Below, piece by piece: positions 9,468-59,457 of a stretch of 64,000 nt of DNA; the stretch's first letter is position 1, and the number at the start of each line of letters is the position of its first letter. The DNA is taken from assembly GCF_003334355.1 (NCBI RefSeq), contig NZ_QOWP01000009.1; one strand, 5' to 3'. A program made the position numbers and the translations under genes. The notes under the pieces are model-generated. The model had not been told where the DNA came from. It searched no databases and saw nothing but the letters and a program-made list of their open reading frames with translations. This DNA comes from Escherichia coli (GTDB lineage Bacteria > Pseudomonadota > Gammaproteobacteria > Enterobacterales > Enterobacteriaceae).

Positions 9468-10133
9468 TTAACTCGCCTGCAAAGCGTTGATTTCGGATTT
9501 ATCTGCCAGTCTTTTCAACAGCATATTGAGTAATACGCCATACATTGGCAGGAAGAAAACGATACTGATTAACACTTTGAAACAGTAATCGACCAGCGCG
9601 ATTTCCATCCAGTGTTCAGCCATAAAGGCATCCGGGCTACGCCAGAAGGCAATGAAGAAAAAGGCCAGCGTGTCGCTGACGTTACCGAACAGTGTGGACG
9701 CTGTCGGTGCCAGCCACCAGCGGCGACTCTGACGCAGGCGGTTAAAAACGTGCACGTCGAGGATTTGCCCCAGCGCGTAGGCCATGAAACTGGCGGTGGC
9801 GATACGGGCGACAAACAGGTTGAAGTGGGCGAGTGCGCCGAATCCCTGCCAGGAACCCATATAGAATAGCGACGAGATGACGTAGGAGATTAATAACGCA
9901 GGGATCATTACCGCGAAGATAATGCGTCGGGCCAGCGGTGCGCCAAAAATACGCACGGTCAGGTCGGTAGCAAGAAAAATAAACGGAAAGCTAAACGCGC
10001 CCCAGGTGGTATGGAAACCCAAAATGGAGACGGGAAGCTGAACCAGATAGTTACTGGAGGTGATCACCAGCAGATGAAATAACGATAACCAGAACAACGC
10101 CTTATAGCGTTGAGTTTGCGAGAAAACGTTCAT
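9468..10133 (-). CDS. yhhQ: Queuosine precursor transporter YhhQ
   Basis: 221 aa polytopic membrane ORF; position and length match YhhQ. Confidence 0.88.
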   Translation of the reverse strand: MNVFSQTQRYKALFWLSLFHLLVITSSNYLVQLPVSILGFHTTWGAFSFPFIFLATDLTVRIFGAPLARRIIFAVMIPALLISYVISSLFYMGSWQGFGALAHFNLFVARIATASFMAYALGQILDVHVFNRLRQSRRWWLAPTASTLFGNVSDTLAFFFIAFWRSPDAFMAEHWMEIALVDYCFKVLISIVFFLPMYGVLLNMLLKRLADKSEINALQAS

Positions 10134-37569: not shown

Positions 37570-37660
37570 GCGATCAGGAAGACCCTCGCGGAGAACCTGA
37601 AAGCACGACATTGCTCACATTGCTTCCAGTATTACTTAGCCAGCCGGGTGCTGGCTTTTT
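37570..37660 (+). ncRNA. ryhB: Iron-responsive small RNA RyhB
   Basis: GCGATCAGGAAGACCCTCGCGGAGAACCTGAAAGCACGACATTGCTCACATTGCTTCCAGTATTACTTAGCCAGCCGGGTGCTGGCTTTTTTTTT matches the RyhB sequence as I recall it; ends in hairpin GCCAGC-CGGGT-GCTGGC plus a T9 tract; lies between yhhY and yhhX. Confidence 0.9.
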
Positions 37661-37780
37661 TTTTGATCTTTCGTTCTCAATTTATCCACGGGAGTGCTTG
37701 TGTTCGTTATGCGCACTCCAGTAGGAACCACGTCCGCTTTGCGCTAAGGTGTAAATAACCACCTTAAAAAGGACGAAATC

Positions 37781-51985: not shown

Positions 51986-54451
<2,466 letters not shown>

Positions 54452-54466
54452 TTTCACTAATAAATA

Positions 54467-54495
54467 GAACGGGGCCAAAGGGTCCCGTTTTTTTC
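54467..54495 (+). terminator. Rho-independent terminator after glgP
   Basis: Hairpin AACGGGGCC-AAAG-GGTCCCGTT followed by TTTTTTT. Confidence 0.7.
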
Positions 54496-54566
54496 GCCAT
54501 CATTTCGGAAAAGTGTCCAGAAGGGGCAAGGGGACTCGGGGAGTATAATTTCGCCATTCAGAAAGA

Positions 54567-56083
54567 ATGGAAAGAATAATGCAAAACAGAAAATGGATTT
54601 TGACCTCGCTGGTAATGACTTTTTTCGGCATCCCCATTCTGGCGCAGTTTTTGGCGGCGGTTATTGCCATGCTGGGTGTCGGACTTGCCGGTATTATTGA
54701 AGTTTGTAATATCTTTATCACGCCAACAATTTACCTTCTGCTCAACGTCTTTATGCTGACGCTGGGGGCGATAATAATATTTTTCTCTGGTCGCGTGTGG
54801 GCCGGTGATAGCGCGCCAGAAAACAGAGAAATAGCCGTCTGGCGGCAATGCTTTTTTCTCTTACCCGCGCTATTAACCCTGGTTGGCTGGATAATCACGC
54901 TACATCTGGCAGATTATCAATTTCGCCAGATGGGAGCTGGTTGGTTGGCAAACCTTATGCTTCCCTGGTTGGCGTTTTTTTAGTCTCATTAGTGGGTGGT
55001 GAGTACTGGTGGATGGTCATTATTCCCGTTGGGGCGCATATCAGTTTTTCGCTGGGATACGCCTGGCCGACCAGATATCCTTTATCCGGCACGTCCGGAC
55101 TACGTTGCCGTAACTTACTCCTGTTTCTACTTCTCTTACTTGGTATTGTCGCCGGGTATCAGGCCCATTTATATAAGCAGCAAAATCCTGGTGTCGGTGT
55201 ACGCGAAAATATTGATATCTGGGCCTGGCGACCCGATAAACTCAATAATCGACTGACGCCGCTGCGTGGCAAACCGCAAATTCAGTTTAGGCAAAACTGG
55301 CCGCGAATCGATGGCGCCACGGCTGCGTACCCAATTTATGCTTCTGCATTTTATGCATTAAGTGTAATACCAGAGGATTTTCACGTTTGGGATTATCTGG
55401 AAAACTCTCGTACGCCAGAAGCATATAACAAAATCGTTAAGGGCGATGCTGATATTATTTTCGTGGCGCAACCTTCCGGTGGGCAAAAAAAACGTGCAAA
55501 GGAATCTGGTGTCACTTTGCTGTACACCCCCTTTGCCCGTGAAGCATTCGTTTTCATCGTCAATGCGGATAATCCGGTTAATTCCCTGACTGAACAACAG
55601 GTGCGTGACATTTTCAGTGGTGCAATTACCAATTGGCGTGCTGTTGGCGGTAACGATCAGGAGATCCAGACCTGGCAGCGCCCGGAAGACTCTGGCAGCC
55701 AGACAGTGATGCAATCACAGGTCATGAAAAATGTCCGCATGATCTCGCCGCAGGAAACGAAAGTGGCAAGCGTGATGGAGGGAATGATTAAAGTCGTTGC
55801 CGAATACCGTAATACAAACAACGCAATAGGCTATACCTTCCGCTATTACGCGACGCAAATGAATGCTGATAAAAATATAAAATTGCTAGCGATTAACGGT
55901 ATTACACCGACGGCGGAAAACATTCGCAACGGCAAATATGCGTACATCGTCGATGCATTTATGGTGACGAGAGAAAATACAACGTCAGAAACACAAAAAC
56001 TGGTCGAATGGTTTTTAACGCCGCAGGGGCAGAGTCTGGTAGAAGATGTGGGATATGTGCCGCTGTATCCAACAATGGAATAA
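54567..56083 (+). pseudogene. Membrane-anchored PstS-like periplasmic-binding-domain protein, apparently disrupted by a +1 frameshift at a T7 tract (yzgL-like locus)
   Basis: Frame A ORF 54567..54983 (multi-TM) ends at TAG inside a T7 run (54975..54981); frame B ORF 54848..56083 continues with TM-like segments and a C-terminal PBP/PstS-like domain (DSGSQT..AIGYTFRYY..YVPLY). One extra T would fuse them into a single ~505-aa ORF. TATAAT at 54544..54549. Confidence 0.5.
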
Positions 56084-56108
56084 CGCTCGAGAGAAAGGAA
56101 TCAGCGAG

Positions 56109-57101
56109 ATGAATAAATTCACCGGTGTTTTACTATTAGGCACGGCGTTACTGGCGGGATGTGTCGACCGGGAAGGGTACTATAACAGCGTTAGGGAAGA
56201 AGAGAGCCATGGACTGACGTCTCTGCGGGGGCAACCTGCATTACGTTACAGCGATGATTGGTCAAGATGGCCGAGAGTGTACGGCGCTACAGCCTTATAC
56301 CCGCTGTATGCCTCCGCGTATTATAAATTAGTACCCGAGCCAAAAGATAAGGATCGAACCTCGCTGGCCTGGCAGGCGTATGGTTTGCAGCAAACCCGAA
56401 CAGCTGAAGCCTACGATAGTCTGATTAAAGGTTCCGCGACGGTTATTTTTGTTGCACAACCGTCGGAAGGACAGAAAAAACGTGCAGAAGAAGCGGGTGT
56501 TAAACTGAAATATACCGCTTTCGCCCGCGAAGCCTTTGTCTTTATCGTTGATATTAATAACCCGGTAAATTCTCTCTCTGAGCACCAGGTTAAAGATATT
56601 TTTAGCGGCAAAACTAGCCGCTGGAATAAAGTAGGTGGTAGTGACGAACATATAAAAGTCTGGCAGCGCCCTGAAGATTCTGGAAGCCAAACGATTATGA
56701 AGGGGTTGGTTATGCAAGACACCCCAATGCTGCCAGCTAAAAAATCCACTGTGATTGATCTTATGGGCGGTTTAATTACTGAAGTTGCCGACTATCAAAA
56801 CACGCCATCTTCCATTGGGTACACCTTCCACTATTACGTCACTCGTATGAATGACAATATGCTCAAAATGCGCAAGCAGATTAAACTTTTGGCTATAAAT
56901 GGCGTTGCGCCTACCGAGGAAAATATCCGCAACGGCACTTATCCATACATTGTGGATGCCTATATGGTGACGCGTGAAAATCCCACGCCGGAAACGCAGA
57001 AATTTGTTGACTGGTTTATAAGTCAGCAGGGGCAACAGTTGGTAGAGGATGTGGGGTATGTGCCGCTGTATGAAGCATCCCCCGAATCATCAGGACAATA
57101 A
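56109..57101 (+). CDS. Lipoprotein with PstS-like periplasmic substrate-binding domain (paralog of the upstream gene's C-terminal domain)
   Basis: ORF track 56046..57101; start at ATG 56109 (MNKFTGVLLLGTALLAGC lipobox) after AAAGGA; the domain aligns by eye with 54848..56083 (AREAFVFIV, NPVNSL, WQRPEDSGSQT, IGYTF.YY, LLAINGV.PT.ENIRNG, VEDVGYVPLY). Confidence 0.7.
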   Translation: MNKFTGVLLLGTALLAGCVDREGYYNSVREEESHGLTSLRGQPALRYSDDWSRWPRVYGATALYPLYASAYYKLVPEPKDKDRTSLAWQAYGLQQTRTAEAYDSLIKGSATVIFVAQPSEGQKKRAEEAGVKLKYTAFAREAFVFIVDINNPVNSLSEHQVKDIFSGKTSRWNKVGGSDEHIKVWQRPEDSGSQTIMKGLVMQDTPMLPAKKSTVIDLMGGLITEVADYQNTPSSIGYTFHYYVTRMNDNMLKMRKQIKLLAINGVAPTEENIRNGTYPYIVDAYMVTRENPTPETQKFVDWFISQQGQQLVEDVGYVPLYEASPESSGQ

Positions 57102-57703
57102 TGATGAATATAATCAGACTTTATATTTATCCGTTATTTCTCGGCTTTGTTATTGTGCCGTTGTTGGTGTGGCCGATGGTGGTTGCGCTGGCTGCTTGTA
57201 TTATCACGCTGAGTTTTCTGGGGGAAATGCTGTTCTCAATCCCGCTCATGATCAGGCGTATTTCACTTCTGCAATTACAACTTTGGTTATCGGCTGAATA
57301 TGCGCTTTTCTTCTGTGTAATGTGTTGCGTTGGTTGGCAATTTACTCGTAGAACTCAATCTGAATTGAAAAGCAGGCTCCATTGTTGATTGGTATTCGCA
57401 CCGATCTATTTATGGTTGATCCTCTGGAATATCATTTTTTACATCGCGCCAGCGAAAATTGCGTTGCTGGAAAGTATCCGCAATTTCTTTCTGCTTGTTG
57501 TCTGGCTACCCCTGAATTTTTCGCCATTTTGGCCTCAGCCGTGGACGGATTTTATCGGTCCAATAAGCGCACAGCTTGGTTTTGCGTTGGGATATTATTG
57601 CCAGTGGTGCAGCAAAAATAGATGCCAGATACGGAAGTTGAGTGAGTGGGGAACGTGCTTAAGTTTTGTTACGTTGGGTATGATGGCGTGGGCTTTGCGG
57701 TAA
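57101..57703 (+). pseudogene. Small polytopic membrane protein ORF interrupted by an in-frame TGA (two ORF-track pieces 57101..57388 and 57389..57703)
   Basis: ATG 57101 overlaps the stop of the upstream lipoprotein gene (TAATG); ORF reads through to TGA at 57386..57388 and continues in the same frame from 57389 to 57703. The distal part (GPISAQLGFALGYYCQW) resembles the membrane segment of 54567..56083 (PVGAHISFSLGYAWPTR). Confidence 0.35.
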
Positions 57704-57747
57704 TTCCCTGAATCAAAAAGTAGGTCAGATTGTTGACAACGTGGCGC

Positions 57748-57846
57748 TTTGTTCATGCCTGATGCGGCGCGAACGCCTTATCAGGCCTACAAAATCATGC
57801 AAATTCAATATATTGTATAAACAACGTAGGCCAGATAAGCGTAGCG
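57748..57846. repeat. REP/BIME: two inverted REP units downstream of glpD
   Basis: GCCTGATGCGGCGCGAACGCCTTATCAGGCCTACA (57748..57782) and CGTAGGCCAGATAAGCGTAGCGCATCTGGCA (57816..57846); a 10-bp stem hairpin follows at 57870..57893. Confidence 0.85.
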
Positions 57847-57918
57847 CATCTGGCAGTTTTTTGGTTTGTCATCAGTCTCAGGTCAGATTGAAATCTGACC
57901 TGGCCACCTTACATTAAA

Positions 57919-59424
57919 TCACGACGCCAGCGACAGCTTCTGCTGCGTATACTCCACCAGCCACTGACTCACACGAGATTGTTGATCCGCATTTAGCCAC
58001 ATGCCTTGTTTTGTGCGACGCCACAGGGCGTCGTCGGCGCGGCGGACCCATTCGTGATCCACCAGGTATTTCAGCTCCGCTTCGTAGAACTCATGACCGA
58101 AATCTTCCCCGAGATCGCTTACCGTTCCCGCATTGCCGAGCAGCAGCTCGCTGTTGCTGCCGTAAGTGCGAGCGTAATGACGCGCCAGCGATTCAGTCAG
58201 GAACGGATAGCGGCGGCGCAGGCGAGCGGCATAATCGTCGCGGTCGCCTTCAATGGCGCCACCCGGTAGCACACTCTCTTTCGTCCATGCCGGGCCAATA
58301 CCCTGATAATACGGCGTTAGTTTTTCCAGCGCATGTTCCGCCAGTTTTCGGTAGGTGGTCAGCTTACCGCCGAATACCGACAGCAGCGGTGCTTTGCCAT
58401 TTTCATCATGAATATCAAGGGTGTAATCACGGGTAATAGCCTGCGGCGAGTCGGACTCATCATCACACAGCGGACGCACACCGGAGTAGGTCCAGACGAT
58501 ATCGTCACGGCTTAACTGCTTTTTAAAGTGCGTGTTATACACATTCAGCAGGTAATTGATTTCACTCTCTTCAATCTTCACCGCTTTCGGATCGCCTTTG
58601 TACTCGACATCGGTAGTGCCGATGATGGAAAACTCGTCCATCCACGGGATCACGAACACAATACGTTTATCTTCGTTTTGCAGAATGTAGGCTTGCTTCT
58701 GGGTATGCACGCGCGGCACCACAATATGGCTGCCTTTGATCAGGCGAATGCCATAAGGCGAAGGCAGATGCATCCCGTCGTCGAAGAACTGTTTCACCCA
58801 CGGGCCGGTGGCGTTAACCAAGCCGCGCGCTTGCCAGCTATATTTTTTGCCGGTATCGATATCTTCCGCTTCCACAATCCACAGGCCGTTTTCGCGGCGA
58901 GCAGAGGTGGCGCGAGTCCGAGTAAGCACTTCGCCGCCTTTACGCACCACCATCTGGGCGTTGGCGAGTACCAGACGGGCGTCGTCTACCCAACAGTCAG
59001 AATATTCGAATCCGCGCTTAATTTCCGGTTTTAACACTGAATTTGCGCCAAAACGCAAACCAGTTGATCCCGGCAAGCTGGTGCGTTTACCCAGATGATC
59101 GTACATAAACAGACCAATGCGAATCATCCACGCCGGGCGCAGATGCGGACGATGTGGCAGGCGAAAACGCATCGGGAAGGCGATATGCGGGGCCATTTTC
59201 AGCAGCACTTCACGTTCAGCCAGCGCCTCGCTGACCAGGCGGAATTCATAGTGCTCAAGGTAGCGCAGGCCACCGTGAATGAGTTTTGAACTGGCGGAAG
59301 AGGTCGCGCAAGCGAGATCCTGCGCCTCCAGCATCAGCACGGATAAACCGCGTCCAGCGGCGTCTGCCGCGATACCAGCACCATTGATGCCGCCCCCTAT
59401 CACAATCAGATCTTTGGTTTCCAT
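57919..59424 (-). CDS. glpD: Aerobic glycerol-3-phosphate dehydrogenase GlpD
   Basis: ORF track 57919..59439; start at internal Met (METKDLIVIGGGINGAG, FAD-binding GxGxxG) gives 501 aa. Confidence 0.94.
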   Translation of the reverse strand: METKDLIVIGGGINGAGIAADAAGRGLSVLMLEAQDLACATSSASSKLIHGGLRYLEHYEFRLVSEALAEREVLLKMAPHIAFPMRFRLPHRPHLRPAWMIRIGLFMYDHLGKRTSLPGSTGLRFGANSVLKPEIKRGFEYSDCWVDDARLVLANAQMVVRKGGEVLTRTRATSARRENGLWIVEAEDIDTGKKYSWQARGLVNATGPWVKQFFDDGMHLPSPYGIRLIKGSHIVVPRVHTQKQAYILQNEDKRIVFVIPWMDEFSIIGTTDVEYKGDPKAVKIEESEINYLLNVYNTHFKKQLSRDDIVWTYSGVRPLCDDESDSPQAITRDYTLDIHDENGKAPLLSVFGGKLTTYRKLAEHALEKLTPYYQGIGPAWTKESVLPGGAIEGDRDDYAARLRRRYPFLTESLARHYARTYGSNSELLLGNAGTVSDLGEDFGHEFYEAELKYLVDHEWVRRADDALWRRTKQGMWLNADQQSRVSQWLVEYTQQKLSLAS

Positions 59425-59457
59425 GCTGCCCTCATTCACTTTCGTTAAAGCTCATAA

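Follow-up and report, generated by a model that had tools for sequence, protein, structure and literature searches.

In the 64,000-nucleotide stretch of Escherichia coli DNA analysed here (contig NZ_QOWP01000009.1; hereafter the window), the interval between glgP and glpD is a three-gene operon, g1-g2-g3, that encodes an uncharacterised family of membrane-anchored PstS-like binding proteins. g1 couples a six-helix membrane domain to a periplasmic binding domain, g2 is a lipoprotein with a second binding domain of the same type, and g3 is a membrane protein related to the membrane domain of g1. The operon is largely dead in this copy, with g1 frameshifted and g3 cut off early, and g2 is the only undamaged gene. 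As the island is already known and annotated, the locus is not new; its proteins are nevertheless a distinct, widespread and uncharacterised variant of the PstS type. The features on which the argument rests are these:

54452-57918: glgP-glpD interval; last base of glgP at 54451, glpD on the minus strand from 57919
54576..56083 (+): g1, a pseudogene here; six-helix membrane domain plus periplasmic PstS-like PBP_like_2 domain
54579..55192 (+): region of g1 for the family-specific six-helix membrane domain, with the frameshift inside it
54971..54972 (+): g1 frameshift site; GG here, GGG in every other genome; splits the gene after about codon 131
56109..57101 (+): g2, intact; 330-aa lipoprotein with lipobox LLAGC, Cys18 and a paralogous PstS-like domain
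57101..57703 (+): g3, a pseudogene here; 200-aa polytopic membrane protein, homologous to the g1 membrane domain
57386..57388 (+): early stop codon in g3; TGA at codon 96, where other genomes have TGG (Trp)
54800..57644: end points, mapped on the window, of the deletion that gave K-12 yzgL; 2.84 kb, 8 bp of microhomology

All three genes are on the same strand, only 25 nt separate g1 from g2, and the g2 stop codon overlaps the g3 start (TAATG), a spacing that indicates a single operon. The RefSeq coding sequences of ATCC 8739, strain B and O157:H7 give lengths of 502 aa for g1, 330 aa for g2 and 200 aa for g3. RefSeq names both g1 and g2 'PstS family phosphate ABC transporter substrate-binding protein' and calls g3 a hypothetical protein. 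The g1 start used here, 54576, is equivalent to that of RefSeq, and there are in-frame ATGs at 54567 and 54579; the membrane domain covers residues 1 to about 205 and the PBP_like_2 domain residues 222-501, approximately.

The interval is 99.9% identical to that of ATCC 8739 (NZ_CP022959.1), and three of the five differences found across 9.5 kb fall within it. The remaining two are at 53496 in glgP and 59897 in glpE, so that the window is a very close relative of that assembly without being identical to it. Alignment to ATCC 8739 places one G fewer at 54971-54972, which breaks g1 into open reading frames (ORFs) at 54567-54983 and 54848-56083. An initial annotation, made from the letters of the window, had described a multi-transmembrane segment joined across a frameshift to a PstS-like domain, and the intact 502-aa gene of ATCC 8739, with its one extra G, bears this out. 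The same annotation overlooked the interruption of g3 at 57386-57388, where a G>A change at 57388 turns Trp96 into TGA; a second private change in g3, G>A at 57404, gives V102I. All the sequence features that it did describe lie at, or within a few bases of, the positions it gave. When a 71-base stretch round each lesion was compared with 5,426 complete E. coli genomes, neither the g1 frameshift nor the g3 stop found a match at 99% identity or above, and the lesions are therefore either private to this sequence or errors. The g2 DNA, on the other hand, is 100% identical in ATCC 8739, E. coli C and others, and its protein (WP_001032214.1) is identical in ATCC 8739, strain B and O157:H7.

Binding domains, pocket and membrane domain

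The binding domains of g1 and g2 both match Pfam PBP_like_2 (PF12849; E 1.3e-29 and 8e-30, respectively), and an alignment of the two shows 57% identity over 292 residues (E 4e-117), well above chance. g2 was correctly recognised at the outset as a separate, paralogous lipoprotein of about 330 residues: the gene is intact and its translation reads MNKFTGVLLLGTALLAGC, in agreement with the lipobox pattern L-[AS]-[GA]-C. From the Val at +2, the protein is predicted by the +2 rule to be sorted to the outer membrane. A recent duplication of g1 as the source of g2 is ruled out by the similar identity (55-58%) of g2 to the g1 proteins of E. coli, Klebsiella and Salmonella; judged by sequence, the g2 lipoprotein and the binding domain are paralogues of long standing.

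In the AlphaFold2 model of g1 (predicted local distance difference test, pLDDT, 84), an alpha/beta binding domain comes after six long helices. The best Protein Data Bank matches of the full model in Foldseek are all PstS proteins (9l8j, 4gd5, 4q8r, 4exl, 1twy and E. coli PstS), with E of ~1e-14 for 9l8j and 4gd5 and a target-relative TM-score of 0.78, rising to 0.79; the g1 model has a class II Venus-flytrap fold that can be superimposed on PstS. The family thus shares its fold, and the PBP_like_2 domain, with the PstS subunit of PstSCAB transporters (E. coli PstS, and the TIGR02136 subfamily ptsS_2 with members such as Clostridium perfringens 4GD5/4Q8R and Synechocystis Sll0540, 9L8J). Neither g1 nor g2, however, reaches the curated limits for that subunit. 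Against TIGR02136, with a cut-off of 206.6, g1 scores 122.1 bits and g2 119.1, and against TIGR00975, with a cut-off of 205, the score is 15.8 bits; the NCBIfam models as a whole gave only such sub-threshold PstS matches, plus a meaningless 19-bit match for g3.

The pocket was compared by aligning the family profile to the phosphate-bound PstS of C. perfringens (4GD5/4Q8R), rather than through a bound structure from the family itself. The family-invariant GATA aligns to GSTS and RPEDSGSQ aligns to REDGSGTR, so that the first-loop Thr and the Arg-x3-Ser-Gly-Ser/Thr anion loop of PstS are retained, whereas the GSSAG and ASRD loops of PstS are replaced by RTPxAY and AQPS, which are invariant or nearly so across the family. 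In the numbering of E. coli PstS, we take the retained residues to be Thr10 and Arg135-x3-Ser139-Gly140-Thr141, and the replaced loops to be those of Ser38 and Asp56. Asp56 of E. coli PstS is the residue that picks protonated phosphate over sulfate. With two loops kept and two exchanged for other invariant residues, the pocket looks functional but remodelled, and an anionic ligand is plausible. The phosphate or phosphonate specificity suggested at first is not borne out, given the TIGR02136 scores and the replacement of the Ser38 and Asp56 loops, and the database label 'phosphate ABC transporter' is probably misleading for this family.

The membrane domain of g1, modelled alone, gives a pLDDT of 89 and a predicted TM-score (pTM) of 0.86, and structural comparison found no match for it among solved or predicted folds outside the family. 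The domain is rare, with 161 matches among 1.84 billion representative proteins, and is nearly always fused to a binding domain. Precomputed Pfam assignments give only PF12849 and PF13531 for g1 homologues and none for g3. Very few residues of the membrane domain are invariant (P19, W104 and Q195), no charged residue is conserved within the membrane, and many members from Bacillota have only three or four helices. A covalent tether between a binding domain and a polytopic membrane domain is also seen in fusions of the OpuA/GlnPQ type; unlike those, the g1 membrane domain resembles no permease of the ATP-binding cassette (ABC) type in either sequence or fold, and it has no ATPase partner.

That g3 resembles this membrane domain, as the initial annotation had noticed, is not evident in a direct comparison and becomes so at the profile level. 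Set against g3 in BLASTP, the g1 membrane region shows a 12-residue match that is not significant (E 0.033), whereas hhalign, with a profile of 25 g1 membrane domains set against one of 17 g3 proteins, gave a probability of 97.3% and E 1.7e-11 over 174 collinear columns that span both. The reversed control gave E 0.14; block shuffles gave 5e-6 to 4e-3, values that are low because of one strongly conserved motif in the last helix, PVGAQLxFxLGYY. Searched with a hidden Markov model of the g1 membrane domain, the same collection of representative proteins also yields a g3-family protein, over positions 1-180 (E 8e-9). The simplest view of g3 is that a g1-type gene has shed its binding domain.

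The earlier suggestion of a duplicated architecture, with the order of membrane and binding domains swapped between two copies, is not supported. Homologues of g3 occur without g2: next to an unrelated pair of genes, h236-h255, in one common form of the E. coli island, where the third gene is the g3 allele h201, and without an annotated g1 in strain LF82. Both observations rule out g2 and g3 as an obligate split pair. In Pseudocitrobacter, a g2-like gene is followed by a membrane domain joined to an internally deleted binding domain. In E. coli TA054 (L100 and L101; 6487-9981) the glgP-glpD slot holds three tandem PBP_like_2 genes of 516, 307 or 248, and 326 aa. Taken together, these arrangements point rather to paralogues in tandem, some of which have lost a domain.

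Forms and history of the island in E. coli

The glgP-glpD interval had been proposed to vary between strains, and it does so extensively. Among the 5,426 complete genomes, g1 (at least 80% present) was found in 3,343, g2 in 885 and the whole three-gene interval in 883; the alternative middle cassette h236-h255 occurs in 2,278 (~42%). The form g1-g2-g3 is that of the window, strain B and O157:H7. The more common form is g1-h236-h255-h201, in which h201 is 70% identical to g3. Strain E2348/69 has a derivative of the second form with g1 frameshifted and h236 missing, and in LF82 a fimbrial operon is followed by h236-h255-h201. The cassette lies at 6648-8736 in L010 and at 3564-5652 in L012. h236 is a cysteine-rich cytoplasmic protein, whose Klebsiella homologue shows a weak DUF4279-like signal, and h255 belongs to no family.

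K-12-type strains carry only the yzgL remnant, in agreement with the initial annotation. Comparison of one such locus (L011) with the window by blastn gives two segments with an 8-base overlap, corresponding to a 2.84-kb deletion of 54800-57644 that joins approximately codon 78 of g1 to the last ~60 nt of g3. It follows that yzgL consists of the 5' end of g1 and the 3' tail of g3, and that K-12 descends from the three-gene form. The K-12 gene yzgL (b3427) occupies the equivalent slot with the equivalent genes as a deletion remnant, whereas the window holds the full-length operon with two private inactivating mutations. The interval is apparently O-island 133 (OI-133) of O157:H7, where g1-g2-g3 is intact and the g2 protein identical, in contrast to the window copy with its two broken genes.

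Deletion of OI-133 in enterohaemorrhagic E. coli (EHEC) TUV93-0 lowered type III secretion in an island-deletion screen (PMC3378721), a result restated in a review (PMC10877973). A 2026 genotyping paper names the region 'hotspot A', and yzgL is ~2-fold down in a table of the CpxR regulon; ECs4269 is glpD. The literature assigns no function to the operon, and yzgL appears there only as table entries.

Between intact alleles, the ratio of nonsynonymous to synonymous divergence (dN/dS) is 0.10-0.14 for g1, 0.11 for g2 and 0.21-0.33 for g3, values that indicate purifying selection and hence genes that are functional where intact. The alleles themselves are deeply diverged: dS between E. coli alleles reaches 0.3-0.43 for g1 and ~0.8 for g3, compared with 0.02-0.11 for glgP (0.019 between ATCC 8739 and STEC1590). 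Alleles long kept in balance would fit this divergence, as would recurrent import from other lineages. The island's deep polymorphism also runs on into the core gene beside it: in glpD (57919-59439), dS between ATCC 8739 (L001) and STEC1590 (L010) is 0.04 at the 5' end and climbs to ~0.2 at the 3' end, which faces the island.

Family neighbours and putative function

A search of one-genome-per-species collections with the family motifs [AS][IL]GY[TS]FRYY and [WFY]QRPx[DGN]SGSQ confirmed at least 581 family loci (species), in taxa that include Enterobacterales, Pasteurella, Campylobacteraceae, many Bacillota, Actinomycetota, Treponema, Synergistaceae and Planctomycetota. The full-length members, 77 of 77, span 379-775 aa and have N-terminal membrane helices; conservation within the family is high in the binding domain, and the membrane part is variable.

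Gene neighbours were surveyed in ~90 loci overall, and all ORFs were clustered in 80 loci of other species. The clustering revealed no conserved ABC permease or dedicated ATPase as a neighbour, nor was there one in E. coli, Klebsiella, Salmonella, Budviciaceae or two distant metagenomic loci, and pst genes were never found beside a family gene in any of the ~90 loci. This extends to the family what had been seen in the E. coli operon, which no ABC ATPase or permease adjoins. The proposal of an uncharacterised, membrane-tethered binding-protein system accordingly stands as regards its anatomy and its lack of a transporter partner. Four Paenibacillus-type loci (L039, L046, L075 and L089) encode, immediately upstream, a membrane-embedded sensor kinase with HisKA and HATPase domains; it is without an extracytoplasmic domain, its input region being membrane helices only. 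The end of the kinase gene overlaps the start of the family gene in L039, L046 and L075, and the two make a candidate pair of kinase and co-sensor. An XRE-type helix-turn-helix gene takes the position just upstream in seven Planococcaceae-type loci. The two distant metagenomic homologues are solitary genes, and in distant taxa the gene sits amid housekeeping genes. Klebsiella oxytoca and Salmonella have g1 in the equivalent slot with different downstream genes.

Our tentative preference, which we hold with somewhat less than even confidence, is that these proteins do not import but sense, as membrane-tethered ligand sensors or co-sensors. The working unit would be g1, whose Venus-flytrap domain (a class II periplasmic binding protein) would be held at the outer face of the inner membrane, anchored by the family-specific six-helix domain. 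The binding domain may capture a small anion, probably not simply orthophosphate, and its closure would be passed to its own membrane domain or to a membrane partner; g2 and/or g3 may modulate or partner g1. This sensor reading is suggested by the obligatory fusion to a membrane domain, the lack of a transporter partner and the remodelled yet conserved pocket, and also by the kinases and regulators encoded beside the gene in some Bacillota, by the regulatory nature of the EHEC phenotype and by the precedent of PstS in Pseudomonas aeruginosa, which signals to the chemoreceptor CtpL (PMC8050422). Like the binding proteins that signal in the PstS-CtpL pair and in the LuxP-LuxQ and TorT-TorS co-sensors, the family does without a transporter of its own; its Paenibacillus homologue shares an operon with a kinase that has no external domain, and its sole recorded phenotype is regulatory. 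It differs from known co-sensors in that the g1 binding domain is covalently joined to a polytopic membrane module and that no transducer is encoded beside the E. coli operon.

Several observations weigh against a sensor. No signal-transducer gene adjoins the family gene in the E. coli, Klebsiella or Salmonella loci, and the kinase and XRE neighbours are limited to a few related genera of Bacillota (4/80 and 7/80, respectively). A topology of six helices with an external binding domain does not come out cleanly under the positive-inside rule. Roughly one in four E. coli, K-12 among them, and also the strain of the window do without the system, so that any role it plays is dispensable.

The anatomy could also be that of orphan receptors, g1 and g2 binding phosphate, a related oxyanion or a phosphonate on behalf of a distant ABC importer such as PstCAB, with the membrane domain or the lipid acting as a mere tether. 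Orphan binding proteins can share one transporter, and the PstS-like fold, the retained Thr and Arg...SGS anion loops and the RefSeq naming of g1 and g2 would all agree with such a role. We nonetheless consider it unlikely, as the scores are far under the PstS cut-offs, the equivalents of Ser38 and Asp56 are exchanged for other invariant residues, no family gene adjoins pst genes in the ~90 loci, and a conserved six-helix domain of 200 residues far exceeds the needs of a tether. If instead the six-helix domain were itself the pathway, probably as an oligomer and perhaps together with g3, the fused binding domain would feed a self-contained transporter. The fusion to one membrane module, which is obligatory across phyla, the confident helical-bundle model (pTM 0.86), the absence of any other transporter gene nearby and the existence of membrane-domain-only paralogues such as g3 are all in keeping with this, but the fold is unlike that of any known transporter or channel, very few residues of the membrane domain are invariant, no charge within the membrane is conserved, and many Bacillota members have just three or four helices. 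We regard such a transporter as distinctly improbable.

We judge equally improbable a role of the island as cargo for competition or defence, in which the periplasmic binding proteins would act like immunity proteins, sensing or neutralising a toxin or phage component that enters from outside. The very deep divergence of the E. coli alleles, spilling into the 3' end of glpD, would suit such a role, as would the exchange of the middle genes as cassettes, the one to three tandem binding-domain genes and the company kept by the Salmonella g2-like lipoproteins, which lie amid Rhs, PAAR and Ntox34 fragments and HEAT/Sel1-type genes of the immunity-gene kind. Yet the E. coli island has no toxin gene, the surroundings in distant taxa are housekeeping genes, PHROGs match only the phage PstS family (for g2), and the PADLOC models were blank for the proteins submitted to them, namely full-length g1 and those of the alternative cassette (g2 and the g3 allele of the window were left out). 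Strong conservation of the pocket residues across phyla moreover fits a small-molecule ligand better than an arms race. Least probable of all, and in our view very unlikely, is that the island is decaying DNA without a current role. Decay of an uptake or sensing module had been one of the first suggestions, and for this copy, with its frameshift and nonsense mutation, it holds; for the family it is refuted by purifying selection (dN/dS 0.10-0.33 between intact alleles), and the occurrence in at least 581 species and an intact gene in 3,343 of the 5,426 E. coli genomes speak against it as well.

A bolder hypothesis, which we find doubtful, is that the family represents a new envelope device, a PstS-derived flytrap combined with a unique six-helix module that would operate without ABC, tripartite ATP-independent periplasmic (TRAP) or tripartite tricarboxylate transporter (TTT) machinery. 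It would be either a one-protein sensor that partners membrane-embedded kinases or a conduit gated by its binding protein, with an anion as ligand, and in E. coli it would form an ancient balanced polymorphism that influences type III secretion. These proteins are integrated in the membrane, lack a transporter and have an altered pocket; to find their ligand and output would establish a new role for binding-protein domains, and would account for an E. coli island long known to vary (yzgL in K-12, O-island 133 in O157:H7). The label 'PstS phosphate-transporter subunit' is in any case probably wrong for a family that reaches from Enterobacterales to Bacillota in at least 581 species. For the window itself less follows: it has the operon, but with private inactivating mutations in two of the three genes.

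Further family genes, or a relic of one, lie in two related islands. In the K. oxytoca locus L004, a 40-codon ORF at 9706-9828 is the C-terminal relic of a second PstS-like gene, left where a deletion or a cassette exchange took place long ago at the conserved ...GQxLVxxxGYVPLY end. In Salmonella enterica (L017 and L018), the two g2-like lipoprotein genes lie amid fragments of an Rhs core C-terminus (DPLGL), PAAR and Ntox34, along with an HExxH-containing ORF and HEAT and Sel1-like genes; this island looks like an orphan toxin and immunity array.

Flanking sequence elements

Two further elements flank the operon in the window:

54466..54491 (+): intrinsic terminator of glgP; 11-bp stem and a run of seven U; parts glgP from the island operon
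57757..57839: REP-like palindromes (BIME-like element) between g3 and glpD; inverted repeats I1 and I3

The terminator folds with -17.1 kcal/mol (z -3.5), and none of 200 shuffles folded equally well; a scan with consensus promoter and terminator patterns did no better than on shuffled sequence and overlooked this clear terminator. The palindromes are presumably repetitive extragenic palindromic (REP) sequences of a bacterial interspersed mosaic element (BIME), a label given on recognition of the GCCTGATGCGGCG...GCCTTATCAGGCCTAC consensus. The only Rfam match in the whole window is the small RNA RyhB at 37599-37663 (+), which scores 83 bits against a gathering score of 55, lies far from the locus and is unrelated to g1-g2-g3. 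A perfect 11-bp hairpin at 57879-57902 lies just past the stop codon of glpD.

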